Part shown: positions 1,682 through 30,433 of the stretch, one piece after another
Layout of the letters: each line of letters starts with the position of its first letter
Position numbering within the stretch: position 1 is the first letter of the stretch
Source: Candidatus Saccharimonadota bacterium
GTDB lineage: Archaea; Micrarchaeota; Micrarchaeia; Micrarchaeales; Micrarchaeaceae
Length of the DNA stretch: 32,000 nt
Direction: 5' to 3'
Assembly (NCBI GenBank): GCA_963705375.1
Contig: OY970071.1
Span: 360,001-392,000, forward strand
The notes under the pieces: model-generated
What the model was told of the DNA's origin: nothing
The model's input: only the letters and a program-made list of their open reading frames with translations
Database searches by the model: none
Program-made: the position numbers and the translations under genes

Positions 1682-1716
1682 TCAGGTAGATTCGGACTCG
1701 GGATTGTTGAAGAAAG

Positions 1717-1782
1717 AATCAGATGCTCCCAACGGAATTTGGATCCGTGTTTCGAGCGTGATAGGCTCGCGTCCTTGACCGG
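1717..1782. repeat. 66-bp copy of the 3' two-thirds of tRNA-Glu plus 7 nt of downstream flank (att-like direct repeat)
   Basis: 65/66 identity with 3972..4037 (constant offset 2255). It covers the tRNA from the D-loop to the discriminator plus aatcaga, and lacks the 5' acceptor and D-stem. Confidence 0.9.
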
Positions 1783-3090: not shown

Positions 3091-3987
3091 GCGCGCTAAC
3101 TTGGCTTTCAAGCGTATAGCTTGGCTAACTGAGAAGGTATTATCAATTTCTTTATACAGCTCTTCCTTGCTTGTGCTTATGTAGGTCATTGTCGTTATAG
3201 GATTTAGATGCCTTGCAAACTTGCTTGTCAGCACCACATTGCCGTTTGTCTGCCTGGAGAAGCTCGTTATTGCATAATGCCTGAGGCTATGCGTGGTAAG
3301 CCTGTGAAGCTTCCTTGGCGTTCGATCATAGTTTTATTCGGCACTCGCGTCATAAGTCTGATCTAAGCCAGCCATCTGGACATACCGCCTGAACCTGATT
3401 CTTACATAGTCTGAGTCAAGCCAGGGCTCGCTTCTGCCACTGTGCTTGCACCCATCTTTGAAGAACAGGTAACCTTGTGACTGCTCTATCGCTGCATTGT
3501 TGAGCCGAATGTGCTCAACAGTCAGCCTGAAGAGCGGAATAGGTATCAATACTGAGTTGAGGACCTTCGATTTCTCAGTCTTTATTGTAAGTTCTCGTGT
3601 CTGGAAGTCTATGTTCTTGATGTTCAACTTTACCACCTCACCTATCCTCAACCCCAGTTGAGCCTGATAAGAGAACAATAGAAGGAGCTTGGGAGTGTCC
3701 ACGGCCGCAAAGAATGCTTGAAGCGCCTTGTCTGTAAAGCCTTTGTTCAAAGTCCCATACTTTGGAGGCTGGTTCTTCGCGAACTTTCTTAGGAACTGCT
3801 TGTGGACTACGCGTTTGATCTCTTTTATCTGGCGATGAGACAGTTTTGGAAGGAGCTGTTCCAGGTCGCATATAAACTTTTCGAATTCAGATTTGTGAAC
3901 GGGTTCGAATCCGTTAGGCTTAGATGCTTTCTCTTTCTCCACAGATTTGAATCCGGGTCCGACGTCGGAAAAATCAGATGCTCCCAA
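3085..3987 (-). pseudogene. tyrosine recombinase/integrase interrupted by an in-frame TAA at 3334-3336
   Basis: ORF 3334..3987 carries the Arg-I box (LGLRIGEVVKLNIKNI). Reading through the TAA in the same frame gives NYDRTPRKLHRLTTHSLRHYAITSF...ARHLNPITTMTYISTSKEEL...*, which contains the HxLRH and catalytic-Tyr boxes. The total is 301 codons in one frame. Confidence 0.8.
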
Positions 3988-4053
3988 CGGAATTTGGATC
4001 CGTGTTTCGAGCGTGAGAGGCTCGCGTCCTTGACCGGGCTAGACGATGGGAGC
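3979..4053 (-). tRNA. tRNA-Glu (anticodon CUC), 75 nt, no encoded CCA
   Basis: Hand-folded cloverleaf: GCTCCCA TC GTCT AGCCCGGTCAA GGAC G CGAGC CTCTCAC GCTCG AAAC ACGGA TCCAAAT TCCGT TGGGAGC A. All four stems pair. The T-loop is atypical (see findings). Confidence 0.85.
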
Positions 4054-4079: not shown

Positions 4080-4871
4080 TTAGCGCTGAGCCTTTCTTAT
4101 TAGTTTGTGCATCCTTGCAGATTTTATGCTCTGCGTTTCAAGTTTCTCTGAAATCGCGTCAAGAGCGTTCGCATAGTGCGACTCTGAGAATGCCATCGCG
4201 CTCTGTATGAATGACTGCTTCAGCACTTCGTCGCTCTCGGGAGTCATCTTGCCGTGCTCCATGGATTGTATCCTTGAATCGAGCTTTGCGAGGCTCCTGG
4301 TGAAATCCGCAATCGCCGCTTCCGGGAAGCGTTCGATGGCAGTCTGTTGCCTGAAGCGCATGATCTGCAGCGCGGAGCTGCTCGCATCATAGAGCATCTG
4401 GAACGGCTTCTTGTAGAGTGCGATCTCTATGTTAGATATCACCATGCGTTTCGGCTTGCCCTCGCTCGCCATAACGGCAGGCACAAGCAGCAGGTTCTTC
4501 TCATTCTTGACGCCATGAAGCACGTTCGCAGATGCAGTGCATATGTAGTTGCTGCGCTCCTTGTCGCTCATTGAATAGAAGAGGTTGACGTAATTGCTCA
4601 CTGCAAGCCTTGTGTTCAGGTAAGAAAGGGTGGAATCGACTTCTATCGAAGACTGCAGCAGCTTTGCCAACGCCTTGAGCGTGTTGAGGTTGGCGAGAAG
4701 CTTGCGCCTGTACAAACCGGAAGGAGATCCCCTTTTCGTCTTTGCGCTGAGCCTAACGTAAGAAATAGCATATATCATCGACTGGAAAGGCACAAGGCTT
4801 ACCTGGCAGCACAACTCCTTGAATATCGCAGTTCTGCTCTTGTTCAACTGCAATTGCTTGGTTCTCTCCAA
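4080..4871 (-). CDS. hypothetical protein
   Basis: 263-aa ORF, co-oriented and last in the 6481->4080 gene string. No motif recognised. Confidence 0.55.
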   Translation of the reverse strand: MERTKQLQLNKSRTAIFKELCCQVSLVPFQSMIYAISYVRLSAKTKRGSPSGLYRRKLLANLNTLKALAKLLQSSIEVDSTLSYLNTRLAVSNYVNLFYSMSDKERSNYICTASANVLHGVKNEKNLLLVPAVMASEGKPKRMVISNIEIALYKKPFQMLYDASSSALQIMRFRQQTAIERFPEAAIADFTRSLAKLDSRIQSMEHGKMTPESDEVLKQSFIQSAMAFSESHYANALDAISEKLETQSIKSARMHKLIRKAQR

Positions 4872-5431: not shown

Positions 5432-6481
5432 TCAGCCCTTGGTTTGGGTCAGCGAGTAGTTTATCGCCATGTTGAGCGTTTGCGGTATTGTCGCATACTT
5501 GCAGTTAACCACGAACTCTGGCGTTGTAGCGACATCGTACAGGCCTGCCACTTTCGCTTGATTGTCGAGAGACACTGTCGAGTTGGCGATGCACGCGTTA
5601 AGCGAACTGATGTTAAGGCTTGAGCCCTGCGCCACGTCGTAGAGAGTGCTGTTGTACAGGGGCACACCCTTGTATGCTATGCTGAGGTTCGAAAGGAACG
5701 CATGGAAATTGCTCTGCCGGGATGCGCAAGAAAGGTACCGGCCAAGGAGCTGTGTGGTTTCGGCACCATAGCCGCCGTAGAAGTTGATTGCGCTGCTTGT
5801 GAATACGAAATAGTAGCTCATGTTTATCTCATTGTTGAAATGTTTGCTTGCGTTGATGGCGCTGTAGAGTGCAGACATGGACCCCGCAGAGTACGGATCG
5901 GTTATCATATAAACAGGAATCGGTCTTGAGGTCGTACAGAGAGTGCCTTTGTAGATGCTCACGACGCCTTGCGCAATCACCGTGTTGTTGGTGTACATCG
6001 CGGGTTTTAACATCTGCGAGAAAGAGTTCTCGAGCGACAGGTTTGAGTCTGAGAGAAGCATTGAGAAATTGAATATCGTGTTGCTCATGAACGGGTCAAC
6101 ATAAGGCACCATGACAAACCATGCGATCTGGTTAGGCAGGTATGAGACACTTGATTCGTTCACCAGCGCATAGTAGGGCAGCAACGAGAAAGAGGTGTTA
6201 ACTGTGGCATATGACGCTATGATCCGCTCTGCGGCCAAGAGCGCTTGCGCACTGCTATGCGCCGGCTCGGTGCACGTGCCATTAACGATACCGTACGCGC
6301 AGTTTTGCAAGACAGTGCCCTGCTTGAAATAGGCCAGTGCAAAAGCCAGCGCTATGAGTATTACGACTATCGCCATGAGCTCTATGTGCAGATAGTCAAG
6401 TCCATAATTCTTGAACGCCGGTTTCAATATGAACACAGGCGCACTCTCTTTCTTTGCCATGGTCTTTTTCTTTTCGGGCAT
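5432..6481 (-). CDS. membrane-anchored extracellular protein rich in N-glycosylation sequons
   Basis: One N-terminal TM segment (LHIELMAIVVILIALAFALAYF), then an N/S/T/Y-rich ectodomain with 13 N-x-S/T sequons counted by eye. A 1-nt gap separates it from the downstream gene. Confidence 0.6.
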   Translation of the reverse strand: MPEKKKTMAKKESAPVFILKPAFKNYGLDYLHIELMAIVVILIALAFALAYFKQGTVLQNCAYGIVNGTCTEPAHSSAQALLAAERIIASYATVNTSFSLLPYYALVNESSVSYLPNQIAWFVMVPYVDPFMSNTIFNFSMLLSDSNLSLENSFSQMLKPAMYTNNTVIAQGVVSIYKGTLCTTSRPIPVYMITDPYSAGSMSALYSAINASKHFNNEINMSYYFVFTSSAINFYGGYGAETTQLLGRYLSCASRQSNFHAFLSNLSIAYKGVPLYNSTLYDVAQGSSLNISSLNACIANSTVSLDNQAKVAGLYDVATTPEFVVNCKYATIPQTLNMAINYSLTQTKG

Positions 6482-6491
6482 TGTATCATCA

Positions 6492-6603
6492 CGGGCTCGG
6501 CGGGAATCTCTTAAACTTTAAAACCAATAGTCTAAAGTTTATTTTGAACCCGCGACCTTCACCTTAGGAGGATGTCGCTCTATCCAAACTGAGCTACGAG
6601 CCC
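6492..6603 (-). tRNA. tRNA-Arg (anticodon CCU) with a 37-nt intron in the T-loop (position 59/60)
   Basis: Exon 1 (6603..6543): GGGCTCG TA GCTC AGTTTGGATA GAGC G ACATC CTCCTAA GGTGA AGGTC GCGGG TTCAAA. Intron: 6542..6506. Exon 2 (6505..6492): T CCCGC CGAGCCC G. Only after removing the intron do the T-stem, the 7-nt TTCAAAT loop and the acceptor stem form. The junctions sit in a BHB-like fold. Confidence 0.8.
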
Positions 6604-6624
6604 GCGCCTAATTGGAATAAGGAT

Positions 6625-6632
6625 TATTTATA
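6625..6632 (-). promoter_or_regulatory. TATA box (TATAAATA) for tRNA-Arg
   Basis: The minus strand reads atgTAAggTATAAATAatccttattccaattaggcgc|GGGCTCG. The box ends 21 nt upstream of tRNA nucleotide 1 and directly follows the argS stop codon. Confidence 0.5.
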
Positions 6633-6634
6633 CC

Positions 6635-8533
6635 TTACATTTTTCTTGGGGCATCTATGCCGAGAATGCTGAGCACGCGCGCCATGGTACTTGAGAACGC
6701 AGAAGTAATAGCGAGCCTTGCGCTGCGCTGCTTCTCGTCCTGCGCTTTCAATATAGGGACATTCTCGTAGAATCCGCTGAAAGTGGATGCCAGGTCGCTG
6801 GCGTATTCCGCCAATGCATTAGGCCGCAGCTCTTTGCATGCCTTTTCTACCACAGGATTGAGTAGCGATATCTGCCTTATGAGCGCAAATTCGGGATCTG
6901 AGCATGCTAAAGAGAAGTCGGCATCGAGTGCATCGACATTGTTGAAGCGACCGTCTTCCAAAAGCCGGATGGCCCTTGCGTGCATGTACTGGCAGTACGG
7001 TCCGGAAGCGCCCTCGAAGTTAAGCGCGCGCTCCCATGTGAACTGGAACTGCTTTTCAGGAGAAAAGCGTAGATATTCGAACTTTATAGAGGCTATCGCG
7101 ACGCTCTTCGCTATCTTTTCAGCCTCTTCGTGCGACAGCGTAAACTTCGACCCCATCGCAGACCTCGCCTTGACAGTCGCCTCTTCCAGGAGATGGTCGG
7201 CAGTATAGCCTTCTAGCCATGTGCCCTTCCTTCCAGAAAGGCCACCCTCAACCTCGACGTTGCCGTAGCTCATGTGGACTATGCTGCCCACATCATGGTC
7301 CGCACTTATGAGCTTGAACGCGAAAGATAGTATCATTTGAGGCAGCGCCTGCCTTGCGTCAATTATGTTTATCGCAAGCCTAGAACCGCCGAAGCCCATG
7401 CTCTTGCCCTCTTTCGACGTCGTATAGATGGGCTTGCCGTCAGGACGCTTCACCATGAATTCCGAATACTTGAAAGTGTTCGCCAATATTCCAAGTTTCC
7501 ACATATGGTGCGCGATGTCCTTGCCGAGATACGTCGGCGTGCCATCGCTGCGCACTATTACACGGACATCCTCGCGCAGGCCGGCCAACGCGGGAGGCAG
7601 GTCTTTGAGCGCATTGATGTTGATCACTACACAGCCTGCATATTTGCCGTCCTTCGGCCTTTCAATGACCTTGAGCTTTTCAAGCGCAGAAAGGGCCTTG
7701 CTCACCAGATTCTCACGTATGATATCGCTTTCCCAGACCAGCAGGTCATGGCTGATGTTGTAGTTGAAAGAGGTTTCGTACTGCGCGGCAAGGCACCGGG
7801 ACGCGAGCTGTCGCGCGAGTTCAGCCTCGTATGTCCCATCCTGCTCCATCAGGCTGGAGACTTTTGCGACTTCAGCCTTGACTTTCTCATCGCTCTCTAT
7901 CGCCTTGTTAACTTCGACATACTGCTCTCCGAGCCAGTAGTCGAACTTGCCTTTGGCCTTGTCGCTCAGGCGCATGTAACCCCAAAGGCTCTCGGCCACC
8001 TGTATACCAAGATCGTCGATATAGTTCTCGCGCACAACATCATAGCCGCACGCACGATGCATGTTTGAGACGACATCGCCCAGAATGGCGTTCCTCAGAT
8101 GTCCGACGTGCCACGGTTTGTTCGGGTTGATGCTTGGCGATTCTACGCATACCTTGGTGTGGTTGCCGAATTCCGCCACGGTATCGCCAGCAGAAATGGC
8201 AGAAACCACCACTTTCTTTGAGAAGGATGACCTGTCAAGATGGAAGTTCAGATACGAATTTTCTACTGTGACTTTGTTGACGCATTCCGGCACATTCATT
8301 CCGTTTTTGATTTGCGTTGCCAGCTCAGTCGGGTTTTTCTTGTACCTCTTTGCAAGACTGAACGCCACTGACGAAGAGATGTCCCCGAATGCTTTGGACA
8401 TACCTATGGTCGATTCTAGCGCTTCGCAGTAATACCCCATCTTTGCTATTGATTTTGCCAGAGCTTCGGATATCTCTACCATTGCGCCTTCGTAAGGCGA
8501 TTTCACCACATTATCGTTACGGTCCATACTCAC
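6635..8533 (-). CDS. argS: arginine--tRNA ligase
   Basis: 632 aa. It has a class I HIGH-type motif (PNKPWHVGHLRNAILGD) and the overall ArgRS layout with a C-terminal anticodon-binding helical domain. Confidence 0.9.
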   Translation of the reverse strand: MSMDRNDNVVKSPYEGAMVEISEALAKSIAKMGYYCEALESTIGMSKAFGDISSSVAFSLAKRYKKNPTELATQIKNGMNVPECVNKVTVENSYLNFHLDRSSFSKKVVVSAISAGDTVAEFGNHTKVCVESPSINPNKPWHVGHLRNAILGDVVSNMHRACGYDVVRENYIDDLGIQVAESLWGYMRLSDKAKGKFDYWLGEQYVEVNKAIESDEKVKAEVAKVSSLMEQDGTYEAELARQLASRCLAAQYETSFNYNISHDLLVWESDIIRENLVSKALSALEKLKVIERPKDGKYAGCVVININALKDLPPALAGLREDVRVIVRSDGTPTYLGKDIAHHMWKLGILANTFKYSEFMVKRPDGKPIYTTSKEGKSMGFGGSRLAINIIDARQALPQMILSFAFKLISADHDVGSIVHMSYGNVEVEGGLSGRKGTWLEGYTADHLLEEATVKARSAMGSKFTLSHEEAEKIAKSVAIASIKFEYLRFSPEKQFQFTWERALNFEGASGPYCQYMHARAIRLLEDGRFNNVDALDADFSLACSDPEFALIRQISLLNPVVEKACKELRPNALAEYASDLASTFSGFYENVPILKAQDEKQRSARLAITSAFSSTMARVLSILGIDAPRKM

Positions 8534-13602: not shown

Positions 13603-15546
13603 TCAGGTCAGCGCACCGTAGCTCACAGTAGGCATTATGTTGTTTGGAGGATATGTGCGTGCGCGTATCCAGTATGCATAGGTGTCTGCAGTGCACGTTC
13701 CTGTCGCGCTGCCCACATATATGTCGGCGTAATTAACCACTGGCGTTGTTTGCCAGCTTGTTGCAGTCGTCAGGCCACTGTACACTCCAGACTCATACGG
13801 TGTGTCTGTTTTGGTCGCATAATTCATAGTTATGCTCGTTGGTGCCACAACAACCTGCGAGAACAGATAATAATTAGCTGCGCTGTATGGCATCTTGTTA
13901 GAAGACTGTGACTGGCCAACCTGGTTGTAAATTATGCCTGGCAAAAAGCCCGGATACCAGTACCATTCATACGCCGCGTAATAGCCGTACAAACCAACGG
14001 GTTGGTAGCCACCTCCGTTACCCCACACTCCAACTCCAAAAGGAGCGCCTTCGGGTGCAGGGCCGGAATTATAGAACCCTACTCCAATATCATCTGCAAA
14101 ACAGCCACCATCCTGCCCGTATGAACCGCTGAACTCGATCACTGTTGGCATTGTGGTAAACCCATCATAATAGACTGAAGCGTGTTGTCCATTCAGGTAA
14201 CCACCCTGTCCATGCATCAGCTGGACACCGCCAGTCGATGATGTGCCTCCGTTGAATTGCGCCAGACCCTCAAGCAACCATCCGCTTGGCAGCGAAGCTC
14301 CTTGGAAACCGGCATACAGTAAAAACACACTGACCCCGTTATCGTACTCTCCGTATGTGCTAGAAAGTTGCGGTGCCTCTCCGGAATATCCTCCAGTCCA
14401 TGCAAAAGGCGTAGCTGGAGCACCATACTCTATCCTTATGCTGTTATAACTCGAACCGCTTGCAATGCTTGCCGGCAGTTTTATCCAAAGGCTTGTGGCT
14501 GATTCTGCCCACGCATATACAGGTGTATCTGTTGCAGTATCATAGACGAGCCAGTTCCCTGCAAGGAATGTACCTGATGCAGGCGTTATGTCTATGGCAC
14601 CCAACTGGAAGCCAGGGCCTGTAGCTCCAACCTGTGTGTTGATCACATTTACGCTCTGACACGATGTGATTGCCACAGCGCCATAATTCGACAGCGCACA
14701 GAGCGCAGTGCTGGCGAACTCTGCATTCTCACTGGCGTCCTCTAAAGGCATGGTGAACGTCCACGGGTTCATGCTGTTTGTAGGATAGTAGCCGACCCAT
14801 TCAGAGAATGCAAAACTATCTGACGCTGTTGCCGTGAGTGTGATTGTGGCTCCAGAAAGATAGTTTCCTTCAGGGCAACCTGGCGAATTAGCCGGAGATG
14901 GATCAACACTAGAACCTCCTGTGCCGTATGAGAGCGAGAGAGGATAGCAAGTTGAAGAGGGAATTGTTGTTGTAGCAGAAATTGTTGTGGTAGATGGAAT
15001 TGTTGTAGTGGCAGGGGTTGTTGTGGTGCTTCCACTGCCTCCACCGCCACTTCCTTGACCTGTGACTGTGGCACCTACAGATGCAGCCTGCGTTACAAGA
15101 CCAGATTGGCCACCCTCATCGTACCTCAGCCAGAGGGTTCCAGAAAATGGAGTGCCTAGTGCATTCGAAGATAGTGGACAGGGGAAGTCGACATTCTGCT
15201 GCGCACCTGCAGCAAGAGCAATATTCGCAGGGCTGAAACTGGAAGGCGCGGAAGAGCCGCTAGAGCATGCGACGCCGGTAACAGTCATCTGTTGGGAAGA
15301 TCCTATTGTTGTTGACAACAAACCATTGGAAAGCAGAACAGGATTGGAGCAGAGATATCCCACACGGGATGAACACGATGTACTCATAGCAGCAGTGCGA
15401 GTGTTGAACACACCCAAAGAGAACAATGCAGCAAGCACGACAGCGATGATGAGAATTGCCCATCCGTATGTCATGAGGTATTCCATCGCAGACTGTGCAT
15501 GCTTTTTTTTAGCACTCTTAATCACGGATCGCTTGCCGCCCTTCAT
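13603..15546 (-). CDS. class III signal peptide (type IV pilin-like) surface protein with a Thr/Gly linker, one InlB-B-repeat-like unit and a DUF2341/LamG-like C-terminal region
   Basis: N-terminus: MKGGKRSVIKSAKKKHA|QSAMEYLMTYGWAILIIAVVLAALFSLGVF. A ~150-aa module is shared with 17577..20966. Linker: GSGGGGSGSTTTTPATTTIPSTTTISATTTIPSS. One CYPLSLSYGTGG...GC...F.F.EW.G unit follows. The C-terminal part has WIKLPASIASGSSYNSIRIEYG and AYWIRARTYPPN, a DUF2341/concanavalin-like pattern recognised from memory. Confidence 0.8.
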   Translation of the reverse strand: MKGGKRSVIKSAKKKHAQSAMEYLMTYGWAILIIAVVLAALFSLGVFNTRTAAMSTSCSSRVGYLCSNPVLLSNGLLSTTIGSSQQMTVTGVACSSGSSAPSSFSPANIALAAGAQQNVDFPCPLSSNALGTPFSGTLWLRYDEGGQSGLVTQAASVGATVTGQGSGGGGSGSTTTTPATTTIPSTTTISATTTIPSSTCYPLSLSYGTGGSSVDPSPANSPGCPEGNYLSGATITLTATASDSFAFSEWVGYYPTNSMNPWTFTMPLEDASENAEFASTALCALSNYGAVAITSCQSVNVINTQVGATGPGFQLGAIDITPASGTFLAGNWLVYDTATDTPVYAWAESATSLWIKLPASIASGSSYNSIRIEYGAPATPFAWTGGYSGEAPQLSSTYGEYDNGVSVFLLYAGFQGASLPSGWLLEGLAQFNGGTSSTGGVQLMHGQGGYLNGQHASVYYDGFTTMPTVIEFSGSYGQDGGCFADDIGVGFYNSGPAPEGAPFGVGVWGNGGGYQPVGLYGYYAAYEWYWYPGFLPGIIYNQVGQSQSSNKMPYSAANYYLFSQVVVAPTSITMNYATKTDTPYESGVYSGLTTATSWQTTPVVNYADIYVGSATGTCTADTYAYWIRARTYPPNNIMPTVSYGALT

Positions 15547-17576: not shown

Positions 17577-20500
17577 TCATGGCGATAGCGATGCGTATTG
17601 GACAGTGGTTATGTCAGGGTAGCCCCCCATGCAGTAGATGTAGTTGTTCGCCGTGACGCAACTGCCAATGGATAGTCCAGCTGCAAGCGTATGGGTGCTT
17701 TGTACCCATGCGGATGTGCCGCCGCCGCTCAGGATCTGCGCGTATTGGACAACCGTGGTATCCTCAGTACCACCCATGCAGTAGATGAAGTTGTTCGCCG
17801 TTACGCAGCTACCTCCGTTGGCTCCAGATACAAGCGAATTGGTGGTTTGCCATGTAGAAGTTGGGCCGCCACCGCCTGGAATCGACGCGTATTGGACAGT
17901 GGTATCGCCTGAACCACCTCCGGCCATGCAGTAGATGTAGTTGTTTGCCGTGACGCATGAGGGGGCATACTTTGCAACAGCAAGCTGAGTGCTTTGCGAG
18001 GTCCATGAAGAAGTGGCACCTCCGCTGCTTGATGCGTATTGGACAACTGCGGGGCCAGTGACACCACCCATGCAGTAGATGTAGTTGTTCGCAGCTACGC
18101 AGCTAGGCTCTTCTTCCGAAACAGCAAGCTGATTGCCTTGGGAGGTCCAGCCAGAGGTATAGCCTCCACTGGTTGATGCGTATTGGACGAAAGGTTCGGA
18201 GCCCGAGGGATATCCTCCACCCATGCAGTAGATGTAGCCATTTTCTGTGGTGCAGCTATGCCACCATTCGCCTTGGGCAAGTTGATTGCCTTGGGAGGTC
18301 CACGGTGAGGTGGCACCGCCTGGAATGCCGATCGACGCCAATTGGACAACACGGAAATCAGTTTCACCACCCATGCAGTAGATGTAGTTGTCTAAGGTGA
18401 CGCAGCTATGCTCCTCAGTAGGATATACAAGCTGTGTATCTGAGCTTTGCGAGGTCCATGCAGAAGTGTCACCGACGCGTACGAAGGTTGCAGTCTCAGT
18501 AGCCGCGCTTGAGGGCATTGTGAACATAGACCAAGGATTAAATGGTGATGAAGAAGTGCCAGTCCAGTTCGAGAAGCCATATCCCGAACTCGCTGTCGCA
18601 GTGATAGTGATTGACACTCCGGACAAATAGTTTCCAACAGAACAACCAGCAGAGTGAGTTGGAGAAGCTATAACATTAGAGCCTCCTGTGCCGTATGAGA
18701 GTGAAAGAGGATAGCAGAGGGAGAATGTTGCACTCTCTGTCGCCGGACCTGAAGGCATAAGGACGGAAATTTGGTTTGAAGGTCCAGGTGGCATTGGCCA
18801 ATTACCTGCCCAAGCTGAGAAGCCATACCCTACATTCGCTGTTGCAGTAATTGAAATCATGCCCCCTGGAATATAGTTGCCGGTAGAGCATCCGATCGAA
18901 TTGTCAGGAGATGCCGAAACAGAACCACTGCCCGTATGGGAGAGTGTAAGAGCATAGCACTGGGTGAAGGTCGCTTGCTCGTTCATGCCGGGTACTTGCA
19001 TATAAAAGAGCCATGGATTTTCTGTAGATAGATATGTGCCCATCCAGCTGTAGAAGGCATATCCCGGACTTGCTATCGCATTGAAAGTGATAGGCGCCCC
19101 GTGCACATAGTTTCCAGTAGAACAACCAGGCGTGTTGGTTGGGGAAGCGCTGACAGAAGAGCCGCCTATGCTGTTATATGAGAGTGTAAGAGGGTAGCAT
19201 AGATCAAAGTTCGCTTGCTCGACAATATTGTCAGGTATGTTGAAGGTCCATGGATTGAGCGTGTTTGAAAAGGTGCCCGTCCAACCTGTGAATCCATATC
19301 CCGAACTTGAAGTGGCCGTAACGGTTATAGGAGTCCCGGCATAGAAGTTGTCAGCAGGGCATCCGACAGAATTGGTTGGATAAACGCTGACAAAAGCACC
19401 TCCTGTGCCGAATGAGAGGGATAGAGGCCAGCAAGTTCCGCCGCCGCCTCCGCCGCCTCCGCCGCCGCCTCCGCCGCTGCCTCCGGATCCTGTGCAAGTG
19501 TACCCTGCCTGGCACTCCACCACGGAACCAGAGCCGGTGTCTGCCCAGTAGACGTTGCCGCTGCTGTCGACAGCTATGCCCGCAGGTGCATTCTGCCCTG
19601 TGGCTATCGATGTGACCGTGCCGCTAGAATACTTCATCACGTTGCCGGAGCCAAGGTCAGTCCAATATATGTTGCCTCTGCTGTCCACCACTATTCCGAA
19701 AGCGCCAGTCTGTCCTGTCGCAAGGGTCCTCACTGTATTGGAACTTACAACATATTCCAGCACGTCAGCAGATGAGCTTCCAACGTTATCTAAGCTGCTC
19801 AGGTGAGTGTTTATCCAATAGACGTTGCCGCTGCTGTCGACCGCAATCAAAAGCGGGCCATCCGCTGTCGCTATTGTTCGATCAGAGCTGCCAGAATGCT
19901 CCCGGATTTCACTTGAACCAAAGTCAGTCCAGTAGACGTTGCCGTTGCGTGCAGCTATGCCGAGAGGCTCGCCCTCTCCATGCACAAGAACACTGGCCAC
20001 ACTACCAGGGTACACCATCACGTTGCCGTCTCCAGCGACAGTCCAGTAGACGTTGCCGTTGCCGAAAGTTATTCCAATAGGCGATGATAGTCCAGAAGCG
20101 ATATTAGTCGTCCCACCAGAAGAATGCTTCGCCACGTTACCAGAGGCCATATCGGTCCAGTAGACGTTGCCGCTGCCATCTACGGCTATAAAGGCCGGAT
20201 TGTCACCATTGAGATCGGTAGCAAGCGGCGTCACAGTATTCGTACTTTTGACATACTTCATCACATTAGCATTGTCTTGCGTGGACTCTGTCCAGTAGAC
20301 GTTTTCACTGCTGTCGACGGCTACTCCGAATGCGCTGTTCTGCCCTGAAGCCAATATTATCAAATTTTCGGATTGAGAGCCGCCACCACCGCCTCCGATT
20401 GTTGTGGTGCCGCCACCGCCTCCGCCACTTCCAGAACCAAAGGCAGCGACCCTGGCATTCACCGACGCGATCTGCGCAACAAGACCGGTTTGGCCGTTCT

Positions 20501-20966
20501 GCGAGTACTTCATCCATAATGTTCCGGCGAAAGGCGTGCCCAGCGCATTAGAGGATAAAGGGCATGGGAAGTCGACATTCTGCTGCGAGCCCGCGCCTAG
20601 CGCAATCCCGTTTGCTATAGTAGTATAACTTGAACTTGGAGGGGCAGCAGAGTCGCTTGAACATGCGATACCCGTAACGTTAACCGCTTGTGAAGAGCCC
20701 AAGGTTACTGCCAGCACGCCGTTTGATATCAGGACTGGATTGGTGCACAGGTATCCGATCTGTGTTACACAAGAGGTGCTTGAGGCTGCGCCAGTGCGAA
20801 AGACGCCCAAGCTGAACAGTGCGGCAAGCACGACAGCGATGATGAGAATCGCCCATCCGTACGTCATTAAATATTCCATAGCGGACTGCGCAGCATGAAC
20901 TCGTTTATGTCCTTTTTTACTTCTGTTAGAAATAGTAATGCAAACACCACACACAAGCATGCACAC
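17577..20966 (-). CDS. giant class III signal peptide (pilin-like) surface protein: pilin module, 7-blade YWTD/NHL-type propeller, 4 InlB-B-repeat-like units, 6-blade Kelch-like propeller
   Basis: ...KRVHAA|QSAMEYLMTYGWAILIIAVVLAALFSLGVF, followed by the shared ~150-aa module and a Gly linker. Then 7 x ~40-aa repeats ending GN(V/I)YW(T/A/I)(D/E/V/N), a 13-Gly tract, 4 x ~80-aa C(Y/W)(P/A)L(S/T)LS...GC...GY(G/A)F..W.G..(N)PW units, and 6 x ~49-aa N(Y/F)IYCM(G/A)G...VQYA...W units. The exact start codon is uncertain. Confidence 0.85.
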   Translation of the reverse strand: MCMLVCGVCITISNRSKKGHKRVHAAQSAMEYLMTYGWAILIIAVVLAALFSLGVFRTGAASSTSCVTQIGYLCTNPVLISNGVLAVTLGSSQAVNVTGIACSSDSAAPPSSSYTTIANGIALGAGSQQNVDFPCPLSSNALGTPFAGTLWMKYSQNGQTGLVAQIASVNARVAAFGSGSGGGGGGTTTIGGGGGGSQSENLIILASGQNSAFGVAVDSSENVYWTESTQDNANVMKYVKSTNTVTPLATDLNGDNPAFIAVDGSGNVYWTDMASGNVAKHSSGGTTNIASGLSSPIGITFGNGNVYWTVAGDGNVMVYPGSVASVLVHGEGEPLGIAARNGNVYWTDFGSSEIREHSGSSDRTIATADGPLLIAVDSSGNVYWINTHLSSLDNVGSSSADVLEYVVSSNTVRTLATGQTGAFGIVVDSRGNIYWTDLGSGNVMKYSSGTVTSIATGQNAPAGIAVDSSGNVYWADTGSGSVVECQAGYTCTGSGGSGGGGGGGGGGGGGTCWPLSLSFGTGGAFVSVYPTNSVGCPADNFYAGTPITVTATSSSGYGFTGWTGTFSNTLNPWTFNIPDNIVEQANFDLCYPLTLSYNSIGGSSVSASPTNTPGCSTGNYVHGAPITFNAIASPGYAFYSWMGTYLSTENPWLFYMQVPGMNEQATFTQCYALTLSHTGSGSVSASPDNSIGCSTGNYIPGGMISITATANVGYGFSAWAGNWPMPPGPSNQISVLMPSGPATESATFSLCYPLSLSYGTGGSNVIASPTHSAGCSVGNYLSGVSITITATASSGYGFSNWTGTSSSPFNPWSMFTMPSSAATETATFVRVGDTSAWTSQSSDTQLVYPTEEHSCVTLDNYIYCMGGETDFRVVQLASIGIPGGATSPWTSQGNQLAQGEWWHSCTTENGYIYCMGGGYPSGSEPFVQYASTSGGYTSGWTSQGNQLAVSEEEPSCVAANNYIYCMGGVTGPAVVQYASSSGGATSSWTSQSTQLAVAKYAPSCVTANNYIYCMAGGGSGDTTVQYASIPGGGGPTSTWQTTNSLVSGANGGSCVTANNFIYCMGGTEDTTVVQYAQILSGGGTSAWVQSTHTLAAGLSIGSCVTANNYIYCMGGYPDITTVQYASLSP

Positions 20967-22134: not shown

Positions 22135-22137
22135 TGT

Positions 22138-22222
22138 GCAGGGATAGCAAAGCCTGGTCAAATGCGGCAGGTTCAGGGCCTGCTCCCTTAGGGGTTCGAG
22201 AGTTCAAATCTCTCTCCCTGCA
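22138..22222 (+). tRNA. tRNA-Leu (anticodon CAG), class II with a long variable arm, 85 nt
   Basis: GCAGGGA TA GCA AAGCCTGGTCAAA TGC G GCAGG TTCAGGG CCTGC TCCCTTAGGGGTTC GAGAG TTCAAAT CTCTC TCCCTGC A. The T-loop is canonical. No CCA is encoded. Confidence 0.9.
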
Positions 22223-22309
22223 TTTCAGGAATATCTTAAACATTCTAAACTTGTGCTCGTCGAGGCGTAGGGCATGCGCAGGTGTTTCGTGCGCGGCGAT
22301 TACTTCGAT

Positions 22310-28705: not shown

Positions 28706-29809
28706 CTACCCATTGGTATCTCCCCAAGCGTGACTTCCCGTCTGCCCGACGGTAGTTGCTTTGTGCAATATATTCACTGCTGCGTTTATGTCCCTGTCCG
28801 TGACTGAACCGCAGTTATCACAGACGTATGTTCTTTCATACAGGGGCATGTCCTTCTTGTTTCCGCAGACATGGCATGTCTTTGTTGTATCTTTTGCGTC
28901 CACGAACACCACTTGACAACCAGCGTTTTCAGCTTTGTATGTCAGCATGTTCGCAAACCTGTTCCAACCAGCATCATTTATCTGTTTTCCGTATGCCTGT
29001 TCAGCCATTTCCTGTGATTGAAGTCTCTCTATTCCTATCAGAGAATAGGAATTTACCAACTGTATTGATGTCTTATGAAGGAAGTCATCCCTTGAGTTCT
29101 GGATTTTCTCATATACTTTTGAAACCTTCCTCTTTGCCAAGAACCTGCTTCTGCTCCCTTTCTTCTTCCTTGATATGTTCCTTTGGCGTTTCGCAAGCAT
29201 CTTCTCCCACTTCGCAAGATGGCGAGGATTGTCTATCTTCGTTCCATTAGACAATGTTGCAAAGGTCTTCAGCCCCAAGTCTATCCCTATCTGTGCTTTG
29301 TTGTTTGATACAAAGGGTTTGGCTTCCTGTTCTACTGTGAAGACCGCGAACCATTTCCCTGAAGATTCCCTTTTCAGAGATAGAGTCTTTATCGTGCCTT
29401 CGATTGGTCTGTGCGGCTTTATGTTGATTTCTCCGAATGGTGTAACCTTGAGTTTCTTCCCGATGATGGAGAACCCGCTTTGTGGATAATAGATTGACTT
29501 TGCCCTGTCTATGTTCTTGAAGCGTGGGAATCCTGCCTTCTTTCCACGTTTCCGCATTATGAAGCATCGGAGAAGAGCCTTGTGCAGCCTATGGGAGACT
29601 TCCTGCGCAGATTGGGAATACATACCCGTCTTCTTCGTCTCGGATTGAAGTTGGGATTTCGTGGAAAACTTTCCTGTTTCATCATATCTTTTTATGGCAA
29701 ATTCGAGGAGTTGGTTCCATAGATTTTTGGAGAGGTATCTGTGTGTGTCGAGAGCCTTCTCCTGCGCCTTTGTCGGATACAGCCTGAATTTGTATGCCTT
29801 GTCCATCAC
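28706..29809 (-). CDS. tnpB: TnpB (IS605 OrfB-type RuvC-like, RNA-guided-nuclease family)
   Basis: 367 aa. RuvC-I IGIDLGLK, RuvC-II LIGIERLQ, zinc ribbon CHVCGNK...CDNCGS, RuvC-III DRDINAAVNI. All are intact. Confidence 0.9.
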   Translation of the reverse strand: MMDKAYKFRLYPTKAQEKALDTHRYLSKNLWNQLLEFAIKRYDETGKFSTKSQLQSETKKTGMYSQSAQEVSHRLHKALLRCFIMRKRGKKAGFPRFKNIDRAKSIYYPQSGFSIIGKKLKVTPFGEINIKPHRPIEGTIKTLSLKRESSGKWFAVFTVEQEAKPFVSNNKAQIGIDLGLKTFATLSNGTKIDNPRHLAKWEKMLAKRQRNISRKKKGSRSRFLAKRKVSKVYEKIQNSRDDFLHKTSIQLVNSYSLIGIERLQSQEMAEQAYGKQINDAGWNRFANMLTYKAENAGCQVVFVDAKDTTKTCHVCGNKKDMPLYERTYVCDNCGSVTDRDINAAVNILHKATTVGQTGSHAWGDTNG

Positions 29810-30205
29810 ATCCCTTTTTGTTCATCTATGTATCTCTTTATGAGCGCATCGGAGATATGTCCATGCGTTGAAACGAAATAACTCCTTGTCCATAAGGTAG
29901 GAAGGCTGAGGCGTAGGATCTGGAAACTCTTCCCGAAGCTGATGTGAAGTGAATCCTTTTATCTGACCTATGATATAGTTCGGAGTCATTATAGGACTTC
30001 CTACTATGAAGAGATGAACATAGTCTGGCATGATTTCGAGTGCGAGGACTTCGCACTCCATAGTCTTCGCCTTCTCCTTTATCAGTTCCTTTAGTCTTTT
30101 TTCCACGTTCCCGACCAATACCTTTCTCCGATACTTCGGACACCAGACGAAATGATACCCATGAAATGAACACTTGTTTCTAGAAGCGTTATATCCTTTT
30201 GGCAT
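29806..30205 (-). pseudogene. tnpA: IS200-type Y1 (HUH) transposase TnpA, frameshifted before the catalytic tyrosine
   Basis: The first frame is MPKGYNASRNKCSFHGYHFVWCPKYRRKVL...DYVHLFI (HUH)...HQLREEFP, after which it diverges. The canonical tail QILRLSLPTLWTRSYFVSTHGHISDALIKRYIDEQKGM* is in another frame (shift near 29918-29926) and ends at a TGA overlapping the tnpB start. Confidence 0.8.
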
Positions 30206-30433
30206 GATAATATATGGGCATACTGCATATATATACTTATCGGCACTATACATCAGTTCGCTTTCATCCCACCGCTAAAGCATGTGGGATTTCCCGCTCA
30301 CATTGTTAAAGCCTTTTGAGTGTGACGATAGATTTACACAGAAAGGCAGGCGAATGTTGCAAACACTATCCTTTTGGAAGGATTACCTGTACCAGATACA
30401 TAGGTTACAATATCACAAAAGGCAGCAAACAAA

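Follow-up and report, generated by a model that had tools for sequence, protein, structure and literature searches.

In ARMAN-2 (Candidatus Micrarchaeum acidiphilum), 56% of the tRNA genes are disrupted (Fujishima et al. 2011, PMC3239211). Among them, pre-tRNA-Cys(GCA) carries a 13-nucleotide (nt) intron between tRNA positions 59 and 60 (59/60) with a relaxed helix-bulge-helix (hBH) motif, and pre-tRNA-Pro(GGG) is interrupted both at 53/54 and at 59/60 by introns whose motifs are strict (PMC3239211). In vitro, the three-unit epsilon2 splicing endonuclease (EndA) of this archaeon cuts the canonical Ile intron as well as the Cys intron at 59/60 (PMC3239211). Its broad specificity is conferred by an ARMAN-specific loop (ASL) and K161 (Hirata et al. 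2012, PMC3488258). The Archaeoglobus fulgidus enzyme barely cuts a T-loop intron unless the ASL is grafted into it (PMC3488258), and in a structure from 2025 the ASL touches the bulge (PMC12397907). T-loop introns of the bulge-helix-bulge (BHB) type at 59/60 in Micrarchaeota, together with the enzyme that removes them, have therefore been established since 2011 (PMC3239211). Here we describe a tRNA-Arg(CCU) gene interrupted at 59/60 in a 32,000-nt stretch of contig OY970071.1 (positions 360,001 to 392,000; the whole stretch is called the window). The analysis indicates that a Candidatus Micrarchaeota archaeon very probably has here a functional gene for tRNA-Arg(CCU), interrupted at 59/60 by a BHB intron of 37 nt.

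The window gene and the pre-tRNA-Cys(GCA) of ARMAN-2 have in common the phylum, the 59/60 position, the T-stem as outer helix, a relaxed motif and the need for a broad-specificity endonuclease. They differ in the tRNA (Arg-CCU) and in the length of the intron (37 nt against 13 nt). The Cys intron is of the hBH or bulge-helix-loop (BHL) type without an inner helix, whereas the window intron has both bulges and a long inner helix and lacks only the A57 pair. The Cys intron has been cleaved in vitro; cleavage of the window intron is predicted from its sequence. The 59/60 intron of pre-tRNA-Pro(GGG) is likewise a T-loop intron of a Micrarchaeota tRNA with both bulges present. The window gene differs from the Pro gene in having just one intron and in its relaxed central helix, although 21 of the 27 distinct orthologous introns described below pair at all four central-helix positions like that of Pro.

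Structure and detection of the interrupted tRNA-Arg(CCU) gene

The gene occupies 112 nt of the minus strand (6603..6492), and the insertion separates tRNA positions 59 and 60. Read 5' to 3' from 6603 to 6492, the sequence is GGGCTCGTAGCTCAGTTTGGATAGAGCGACATCCTCCTAAGGTGAAGGTCGCGGGTTCAAA / ATAAACTTTAGACTATTGGTTTTAAAGTTTAAGAGAT / TCCCGCCGAGCCCG. Joining of the two exons produces a UUCAAAU T-loop, a GCGGG/CCCGC T-stem and a GGGCUCG/CGAGCCC acceptor stem, and the predicted spliced junction reads GGGUUCAAA followed by UCCCGCC. The exon-joined 75-mer forms a complete cloverleaf in which the T-loop has the canonical 7 nt, and ARAGORN called it tRNA-Arg(cct). The continuous 112-nt sequence behaved differently: ARAGORN reported no gene in it, and an Rfam scan of the whole window gave no match at the gathering threshold. 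In a permissive local Rfam scan, the tRNA model covered 6603..6545 alone with 26.6 bits (the gathering score is 29), and this partial alignment left the T-arm and the acceptor 3' strand improperly placed. The initial annotation, made from the letters of the window, had read the locus as a tRNA-Arg(CCU) with a 37-nt intron at 59/60 and had held that the unspliced sequence lacks a 3' T-stem and acceptor strand. Both statements hold, and its coordinates, intron length and strand descriptions are all correct on the minus strand.

To estimate how often such a gene would arise by chance, each N5-TTCRAN site was paired with a complementary T-stem strand 8-89 nt downstream, the intervening bases were deleted, and ARAGORN was run on the product. 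In 20 shuffled windows there were no positives among 754 candidates, so the tRNA-Arg locus is not a chance find. In the real window, the scan recovered the locus and otherwise gave only artefactual calls on tRNA-Leu, which is intact without any deletion. A run of ARAGORN with relaxed thresholds on the window returned 57 calls, which were mostly absurd and were discarded.

Several other kinds of interruption were considered and rejected. A group I or group II intron, with its ribozyme core of hundreds of nt, does not fit an insert of 37 nt, and Rfam matched no ribozyme family in the region 6440-6660, where it gave the partial tRNA match and chance-level hits (E of 2.3 or worse). A split or permuted tRNA gene does not fit exons that are collinear, on one strand and 37 nt apart. 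The idea that the intron harbors a C/D-box sRNA or some other RNA was dismissed because box motifs are absent and the Rfam hits are at chance level.

The body of the tRNA has one irregularity. Positions 27/43 (window 6575 and 6559), the first pair of the anticodon stem, form an A/A purine-purine mismatch. The mismatch is G/A or A/A in most orthologues, and a normal A-U pair is seen only in the group of L006, L008, L009 and L022. Because the mismatch is conserved, it is not taken as a sign of decay.

Orthologous genes and the splice-site fold

Relatives of the ArgRS encoded directly upstream of the tRNA were searched among one genome per GTDB species, which gave the 25 closest loci. These are nearly all labelled Candidatus Micrarchaeota or Micrarchaeia, with best identities of 74% and 68%; among them is Candidatus Micrarchaeum sp. 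A_DKE, whose genome is complete. The exceptions are two loci labelled Candidatus Marsarchaeota and three labelled Acidiferrales, Acidoferrum or Methanothrix; the latter three are taken to be mis-binned contigs. The argS-then-tRNA-Arg order repeats in about 10 of the related loci. Based on these relatives and the common gene order, the window is assigned to Candidatus Micrarchaeota. JGI contigs were also scanned with a 29-nt stretch of exon 1, which added 14 metagenome loci. The window gene, the tRNA-Arg(CCU) genes of the GTDB ArgRS loci and these 14 make up a set of 34 genes.

An insertion at exactly 59/60 is present in 30 of the 34 genes, after GYGGG-UUCAAA and before U-CCCRC. The 30 insertions are 14-43 nt long and represent 27 distinct sequences. 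With exons joined, all 34 genes were called tRNA-Arg by ARAGORN; on the unspliced genes the program was silent in 28 of 30 cases, and the other two were mis-calls with a wrong 3' end. The unspliced genes with 21-nt introns in L016 (5977-6053) and L024 (5978-6054) are called as tRNA-Arg of 77 nt in which the 3' half is wrong, and the automated annotation of the two genomes may hold mis-bounded tRNA-Arg genes. L016 is the A_DKE genome, and its 21-nt intron is a strict version of the tRNA-Arg(CCU) 59/60 intron.

The remaining four genes (L006, L008, L013 and L022) are uninterrupted. They have the loop TTCAAAT, score 59.4-67.8 bits with Rfam RF00005, and differ from the joined window sequence at 6-9 positions (L013 at 6 of 75). 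The loop predicted for the window at the A59-U60 junction is identical to theirs.

The fold at the splice sites is built on the 5-bp T-stem GCGGG/CCCGC as outer helix h. The two precursor strands are GCGGG-UUCA-[AAA]-UAAACUUUA and UAAAGUUUA-AGAG-[AUU]-CCCGC. In the central helix, U54-G, U55-A and C56-G are paired and A57 faces an A, so that three of four positions pair and the 5' bulge becomes effectively a 4x1 internal loop. Both bulges lie 3' of their central-helix strand, which matches the canonical 37/38 arrangement. With A57 unpaired and only three central pairs, the window copy falls outside the strict helix-bulge-helix-bulge-helix (hBHBh') definition of two 3-nt bulges exactly 4 bp apart. 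It keeps the 3-4-3 register of the strict orthologues with helices h and h' on either side, its 3' bulge A-U-U60 is canonical, and the motif is therefore classed as relaxed.

In the crystal structure of ARMAN-2 EndA with RNA, cleavage separates A14 from A15, the latter being termed the "third bulged nucleotide" (PMC12397907). When this rule of cutting between bulge nucleotides 2 and 3 (PMC12397907) is applied to the window, the cuts would fall between A59 and intron nucleotide 1 (A) and between intron nucleotide 37 (U) and U60, which would leave the loop UUCAAAU. The initial annotation had proposed this geometry, had called the motif relaxed, had predicted a TTCAAAT loop and had named ARMAN-type ultrasmall archaea in its lineage clue; the published rule, the pairing of three central positions, the intronless orthologues and the ArgRS relatives agree with it on each point. 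A true intron with its junction shifted by one nucleotide (58/59 or 60/61), and a T-loop of UUCAAUU or UUCAAAA, is very unlikely. Such 7-nt loops can be drawn on paper because A residues run across the 5' junction (UUCAAA followed by A) and UU stands at the 3' one. However, all four intronless orthologues have UUCAAAU, every register yields UUCAAAU in most of the orthologues, and the cleavage rule gives 59/60 with a 3' bulge A-U-U60 abutting the T-stem.

The geometry is that of the canonical 37/38 hBHBh' motif of archaeal and eukaryotic tRNA introns moved to the T-arm, with six loop nucleotides after the stem in either arm (31+6 = 37 and 53+6 = 59). Common to both are a 5-bp stem, four loop nucleotides that pair with the intron, 3-nt bulges and cleavage after the second bulge nucleotide, and in both the third nucleotide of the 3' bulge becomes the first nucleotide of exon 2. 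The differences are that the site lies in the T-loop and not in the anticodon loop, and that the central helix takes its exon strand from the near-universal UUCR and not from the anticodon. Because UUCR is near-universal, the 3' end of the intron (UGAA-AA) is nearly constant.

Among the 27 distinct introns, the strand facing U54-A57 pairs at all four positions in 21 (UGAA in 19 and UGGA in 2), and it pairs at three, with A57 free, in the others (AGAG in 3; AGAA, GGGA and CGAA in 1 each). The 3' end reads UGAA-AA, which makes a strict motif, in 19 of the 27. The 3' bulge, with a slash for the cut, is AA/U in 24, AU/U in 2 and AG/U in 1, and the first intron nucleotide is A in 22, U in 4 and G in 1. 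The inner helix pairs despite unrelated sequences in different clades, as in UAAACUUUA/UAAAGUUUA, UCGG/CCGG and UGAACUUUUA/UAAAGGUUUA; the 14-nt intron of L011 has no inner helix and is of the BHL type. In summary, the features that an endonuclease needs are constant across the 27 introns and everything else varies.

Pair counts were made on ten distinct junction constructs in which the two sides were joined by an artificial GCAA linker. Of the cells in this alignment, 93.3% form a standard pair, compared with 42-58% when the 3' partners were slid by 1-3 columns. The covariation score was 0.241 versus 0.115 in shuffles, and none of 500 shuffles reached 0.241. The central helix shows one-sided changes only (U-A to U-G) because its exon strand is the invariant T-loop sequence, and two-sided changes are found in the inner helix and the T-stem.

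These comparisons also bear on the possibility that the insert is retained, either as an extended T-arm of the mature RNA (a variant tRNA or a tRNA-like RNA) or as host of a separate small RNA. The stable hairpin of 9-11 bp would suit such a role. Against it, a retained insert would disrupt the tertiary interaction of the T-loop and D-loop; the insert varies from 14 to 43 nt, has no sequence conservation between clades and is missing from four lineages; no Rfam family is matched beyond chance-level hits and C/D box motifs are absent; and the constant features are exactly those that an endonuclease needs. We regard retention as exceedingly unlikely, the least probable of the alternatives considered here.

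The similarity of the introns tracks ArgRS identity. The introns nearest to that of the window are from L001 (74%), L029, L026 and L002 (68%), and all four match it in the A-UAARCYUUA start, an inner helix of 10-11 bp and the unpaired A57. Since the unpaired A57 is common to the close relatives of the window, the relaxed central helix is a trait of the subclade and not damage to a single copy. The pattern as a whole argues for vertical inheritance under constraint.

Extremely unlikely, in our estimate, is a pseudogene, in which the 37-nt T-loop insertion inactivated a tRNA-Arg and AGG is read by another tRNA. The central helix of the window copy is imperfect, the standard detectors reject the locus, and tRNA-Arg(UCU) could serve AGG codons. 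On the other side, 30 of 34 orthologues are interrupted at the same position with nearly invariant exons, and the insert always retains the BHB frame. The interrupted gene in L002 differs from that of the window at 1 of 75 exon positions but at many intron positions. AGG is the most used Arg codon in the genes of the window (58 of 175), and the promoter block is conserved. This block, AAGGTATAAATAATCCTTATTCCAATTAGGCGC, is kept upstream of the tRNA in L001 and L029, although the tRNA of L001 is not adjacent to argS, and together with the TATA-box-like sequence of the window it probably represents the archaeal promoter of the tRNA gene itself. The evidence thus favors a functional, interrupted gene, and its parts are listed in Table 1.

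Table 1. Positions of the parts of the tRNA-Arg(CCU) gene, its neighbors in the window, and related features in other loci (a slash within a sequence marks the cut)
Feature	Position	Strand	Details
Exon 1	6603..6543	-	61 nt, tRNA positions 1-59; from sequence, partial Rfam tRNA match and ARAGORN on joined exons
Acceptor 5' strand GGGCUCG	6603-6597	-	in exon 1, followed by the D-arm
Anticodon CCT	6568-6566	-	Arg; anticodon loop CUCCUAA; 5-nt variable loop further 3'
T-stem 5' strand GCGGG	6553-6549	-	exon 1
T-loop nucleotides 54-59, UUCAAA	6548-6543	-	end of exon 1
5' splice-site region	6548-6543	-	U54 U55 C56 A57 (6548-6545), bulge A58 A59 (6544-6543)
BHB intron at 59/60, AUAAACUUUAGACUAUUGGUUUUAAAGUUUAAGAGAU	6542..6506	-	37 nt
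5' bulge third nucleotide, intron nt 1 (A)	6542	-	predicted cut between 6543 and 6542
Inner helix h'	6541-6531 with 6522-6512	-	UAAACUUUA/UAAAGUUUA, 9 bp, extendable to 11; loop 8-12 nt
Central-helix intron strand AGAG	6511-6508	-	opposite U54-A57, pairs with U54-C56
3' bulge nucleotides 1-2, AU (intron nt 36-37)	6507-6506	-	bulge completed by U60
Exon 2	6505..6492	-	14 nt; 3' exons identical or near-identical in orthologues
U60	6505	-	third nucleotide of 3' bulge
T-stem 3' strand CCCGC	6504-6500	-	exon 2
Acceptor 3' strand CGAGCCC	6499-6493	-	exon 2
Discriminator G	6492	-	CCA not encoded
TATA-box-like TATAAATA	6625..6632	-	about 25 nt upstream of tRNA position 1, just past the argS stop codon (6637-6635)
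argS (arginine-tRNA ligase)	6635..8533	-	directly upstream; NCBIfam NF002447, 523.7 bits; Pfam tRNA-synt_1d, DALR_1, Arg_tRNA_synt_N
Downstream open reading frame, 349 amino acids	5432..6481	-	starts 10 nt past the tRNA 3' end; conserved across loci
Epsilon-type EndA (alphaN-alpha-betaC)	L040 2446-3615; L041 2020-3210; L042 2379-3555		ENA assemblies ERZ250394xx
tRNA-Lys(CUU)-like gene, 59/60 BHB insertion	L040 ~4147-4348	-	GGGGG-UUCG-AA/U ... UGAA-AU/U-CCCCC

Proposed maturation and the splicing endonuclease

The maturation of the tRNA may be pictured as follows. The gene would be transcribed from its own TATA-type promoter, and the precursor would fold into a cloverleaf with an extended T-arm, in which the 5-bp T-stem stacks on the pairs of U54-U55-C56 with intron G-A-G, A57 stays unpaired in the central helix, and a hairpin of 9-11 bp follows. 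A58-A59 with intron nucleotide A1, and intron nucleotides A36-U37 with U60, would then form bulges on opposite strands, 4 positions apart. On either strand the splicing endonuclease would separate bulge nucleotide 2 from bulge nucleotide 3, and an RtcB-type ligase would join A59 to U60 and restore the UUCAAAU T-loop, with CCA added later. By analogy with ARMAN-2, the enzyme is most likely a three-unit epsilon2 EndA with the ASL, and it is plausible that the intron constrains the specificity of the host endonuclease.

In its unconstrained minimum-energy fold, the 112-mer already shows its acceptor, D and T stems together with an intron hairpin of 11 bp (z = -3.67; none of 200 shuffles folds as well).

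Several points weigh against this account of a functional, spliced gene. The same unconstrained fold keeps the central helix open as a 7x7 internal loop, and enforcing the helix costs about 2 kcal/mol (-14.3 versus -16.5). In the window copy the helix is weak, with one G-U, one A-U and one G-C pair and the A/A mismatch. Covariance-model support for the joined sequence comes by proxy, from the partial match and the intronless orthologues, and is accompanied by the ARAGORN call. The excision of the intron in vivo is something that we infer from sequence, and the window holds no endonuclease or ligase gene. Finally, the tRNA-Arg(CCU) gene is not proven essential, since AGG might in principle be read by tRNA-Arg(UCU).

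In terms of the endonuclease, no EndA domain was found in any substantial open reading frame (ORF) of the window, and tblastn with ARMAN-2 and M. jannaschii EndA queries (the latter in agreement with PDB entry 1a79) gave no match in the window or the tRNA loci. Exact look-ups of the YchF and ThiI proteins of the window led to short Logan contigs of run ERR11594402; the only EndA match from Logan (P0015) belongs to a different run.

A homologue search with the catalytic unit of ARMAN-2 EndA returned metagenomic proteins of just 91-226 amino acids. In L040, L041 and L042, the three EndA units follow one another along some 390 codons in the expected order, and the loop motif GTYK is kept. Frameshifts break all three genes, so that gene calling splits each into two or three short ORFs, and the RadA gene of L041 is broken up likewise. 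A true two-gene split of the epsilon EndA was rejected, because the ordered units and the fragmentation of RadA point to indel errors in the assemblies of one study. The database entries of 91-226 amino acids in this family are therefore mostly fragments and do not represent a novel architecture of two units.

L040 also carries, at a distance of about 700 nt from its EndA gene of the epsilon type, a T-loop-interrupted tRNA-Lys(CUU)-like gene (Table 1). The three contigs and this neighboring tRNA are counted in favor of the proposed splicing. The 3' strand of its acceptor stem pairs for only 3 nt, and a second interruption is possible.

Genomic context and significance

An exact look-up of the ArgRS product gave nothing, probably because its true start codon is not the first GTG. 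The order argS, tRNA-Arg(CCU), 349-amino-acid ORF and, about 2.5 kb further on, tRNA-Glu(CTC) recurs in many Micrarchaeota (L002, L016-L024 and others), and in L001 the tRNA and the downstream ORF stay paired although argS is elsewhere. The ORF product begins with a Lys-rich segment and has a single hydrophobic helix and an ectodomain with many N-x-S/T sequons; it matched no known family and looks like a single-pass membrane protein. In most of the orthologous loci, the tRNA is followed by an ORF whose N-terminus is similarly Lys-rich, and GGTG/GTGAT-like motifs lie between the tRNA 3' end and the ATG of the ORF in most loci. There is no T-run 3' of the tRNA-Arg, and the tRNA and the ORF may be co-transcribed.

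A 95-nt direct repeat (window 1688-1782 and 3943-4037; 85% identical overall) flanks a stretch of about 2.25 kb and is near-exact over the part that covers the 3' ~59 nt of tRNA-Glu(CTC) (3979-4053, minus strand). The bracketed stretch has a GC content of 0.42-0.44 versus about 0.51, and a tyrosine-recombinase (Phage_integrase) ORF (3334-3987, minus strand) starts inside the tRNA-Glu 3' end. The stretch looks like a small integrated element that used the uninterrupted tRNA-Glu as attachment site, in contrast to the interrupted tRNA-Arg 2.5 kb away. An 85-nt direct repeat (633-717 and 1846-1931; 95-97% identical, spacing about 1213 nt) adjoins this putative element.

Elsewhere in the window, ARAGORN found a class II tRNA-Leu(CAG) (22137-22223, plus strand). 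It was missed by Rfam in whole-window scans (gathering and E-value modes) because of Infernal speed filters, and scored 50.1 bits in a 200-nt scan. An IS200/IS605-type element (28706-30253, minus strand) consists of the Y1 transposase TnpA (29822-30253) followed by TnpB (28706-29809), which is of the RNA-guided type (NCBIfam guided_TnpB, 275 bits). Two large proteins, of 647 amino acids (13603-15546, minus strand) and 1129 amino acids (17577-20966, minus strand), contain InlB B-repeats (Flg_new_2) and Kelch/beta-propeller repeats and are probably surface proteins of a host-associated archaeon.

In terms of novelty, which the initial annotation had overrated, no new mechanism is revealed here. 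An intron of this kind is ordinary for the Micrarchaeota lineage, as the publication of 59/60 introns and epsilon2 cleavage in 2011 makes clear (PMC3239211). We found no paper on phylum-wide conservation of the tRNA-Arg(CCU) 59/60 intron in an incomplete search of the literature. What the present analysis may add is the conservation of the position across Micrarchaeota and a subclade with a degraded central helix and an unusually long inner helix. Both suggestions touch on how old non-canonical introns are and on how much the endonuclease tolerates.

The introns of Thermoproteales and other archaea with an (alpha-beta)2 EndA resemble the one described here in that they lie outside 37/38, often have a relaxed BHB motif and occur together with a broad-specificity endonuclease (PMC4033280, PMC4090602). 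They belong to another phylum, and their endonuclease has an independent origin, (alpha-beta)2 with a CSL loop as opposed to epsilon2 with the ASL loop. They have also been described as recently transposed (PMC4033280, PMC4090602), whereas the tRNA-Arg(CCU) intron keeps one position phylum-wide. We tentatively put forward, with a confidence that stays somewhat short of an even chance, that tRNA-Arg(CCU) had its 59/60 intron ancestrally in Micrarchaeota, as a trait of the whole phylum that was vertically inherited and kept by selection, and not as the product of recent transposition. Such selection might act through the loss of the usual integrase attachment site in the interrupted T-arm, or through an ordered maturation step that depends on the intron. 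The comparisons further suggest that, in the subclade of the window, the central helix decayed at A57 while the inner helix lengthened to 10-11 bp.

If it is ancestral, the intron would contradict the common view that non-canonical tRNA introns of archaea are young. The change of helices in the subclade, if real, would imply co-evolution with a more permissive endonuclease, and the BHL, strict and mismatched forms would then provide a natural substrate series for mapping the specificity of epsilon2 EndA. The central-helix mismatch itself is a natural variant for probing how far an ARMAN-type endonuclease tolerates departures from the 3-4-3 arrangement.

With default thresholds, neither ARAGORN nor Rfam sees the gene. 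Micrarchaeota genomes will therefore look devoid of tRNA-Arg(CCU) unless the search allows non-canonical introns, and the missed gene affects estimates of completeness and codon capacity for DPANN genomes. With this well-supported case and its 30 comparative examples added to the small set of T-loop introns, one non-canonical position is seen to last across a whole phylum while the sequence of the intron turns over.

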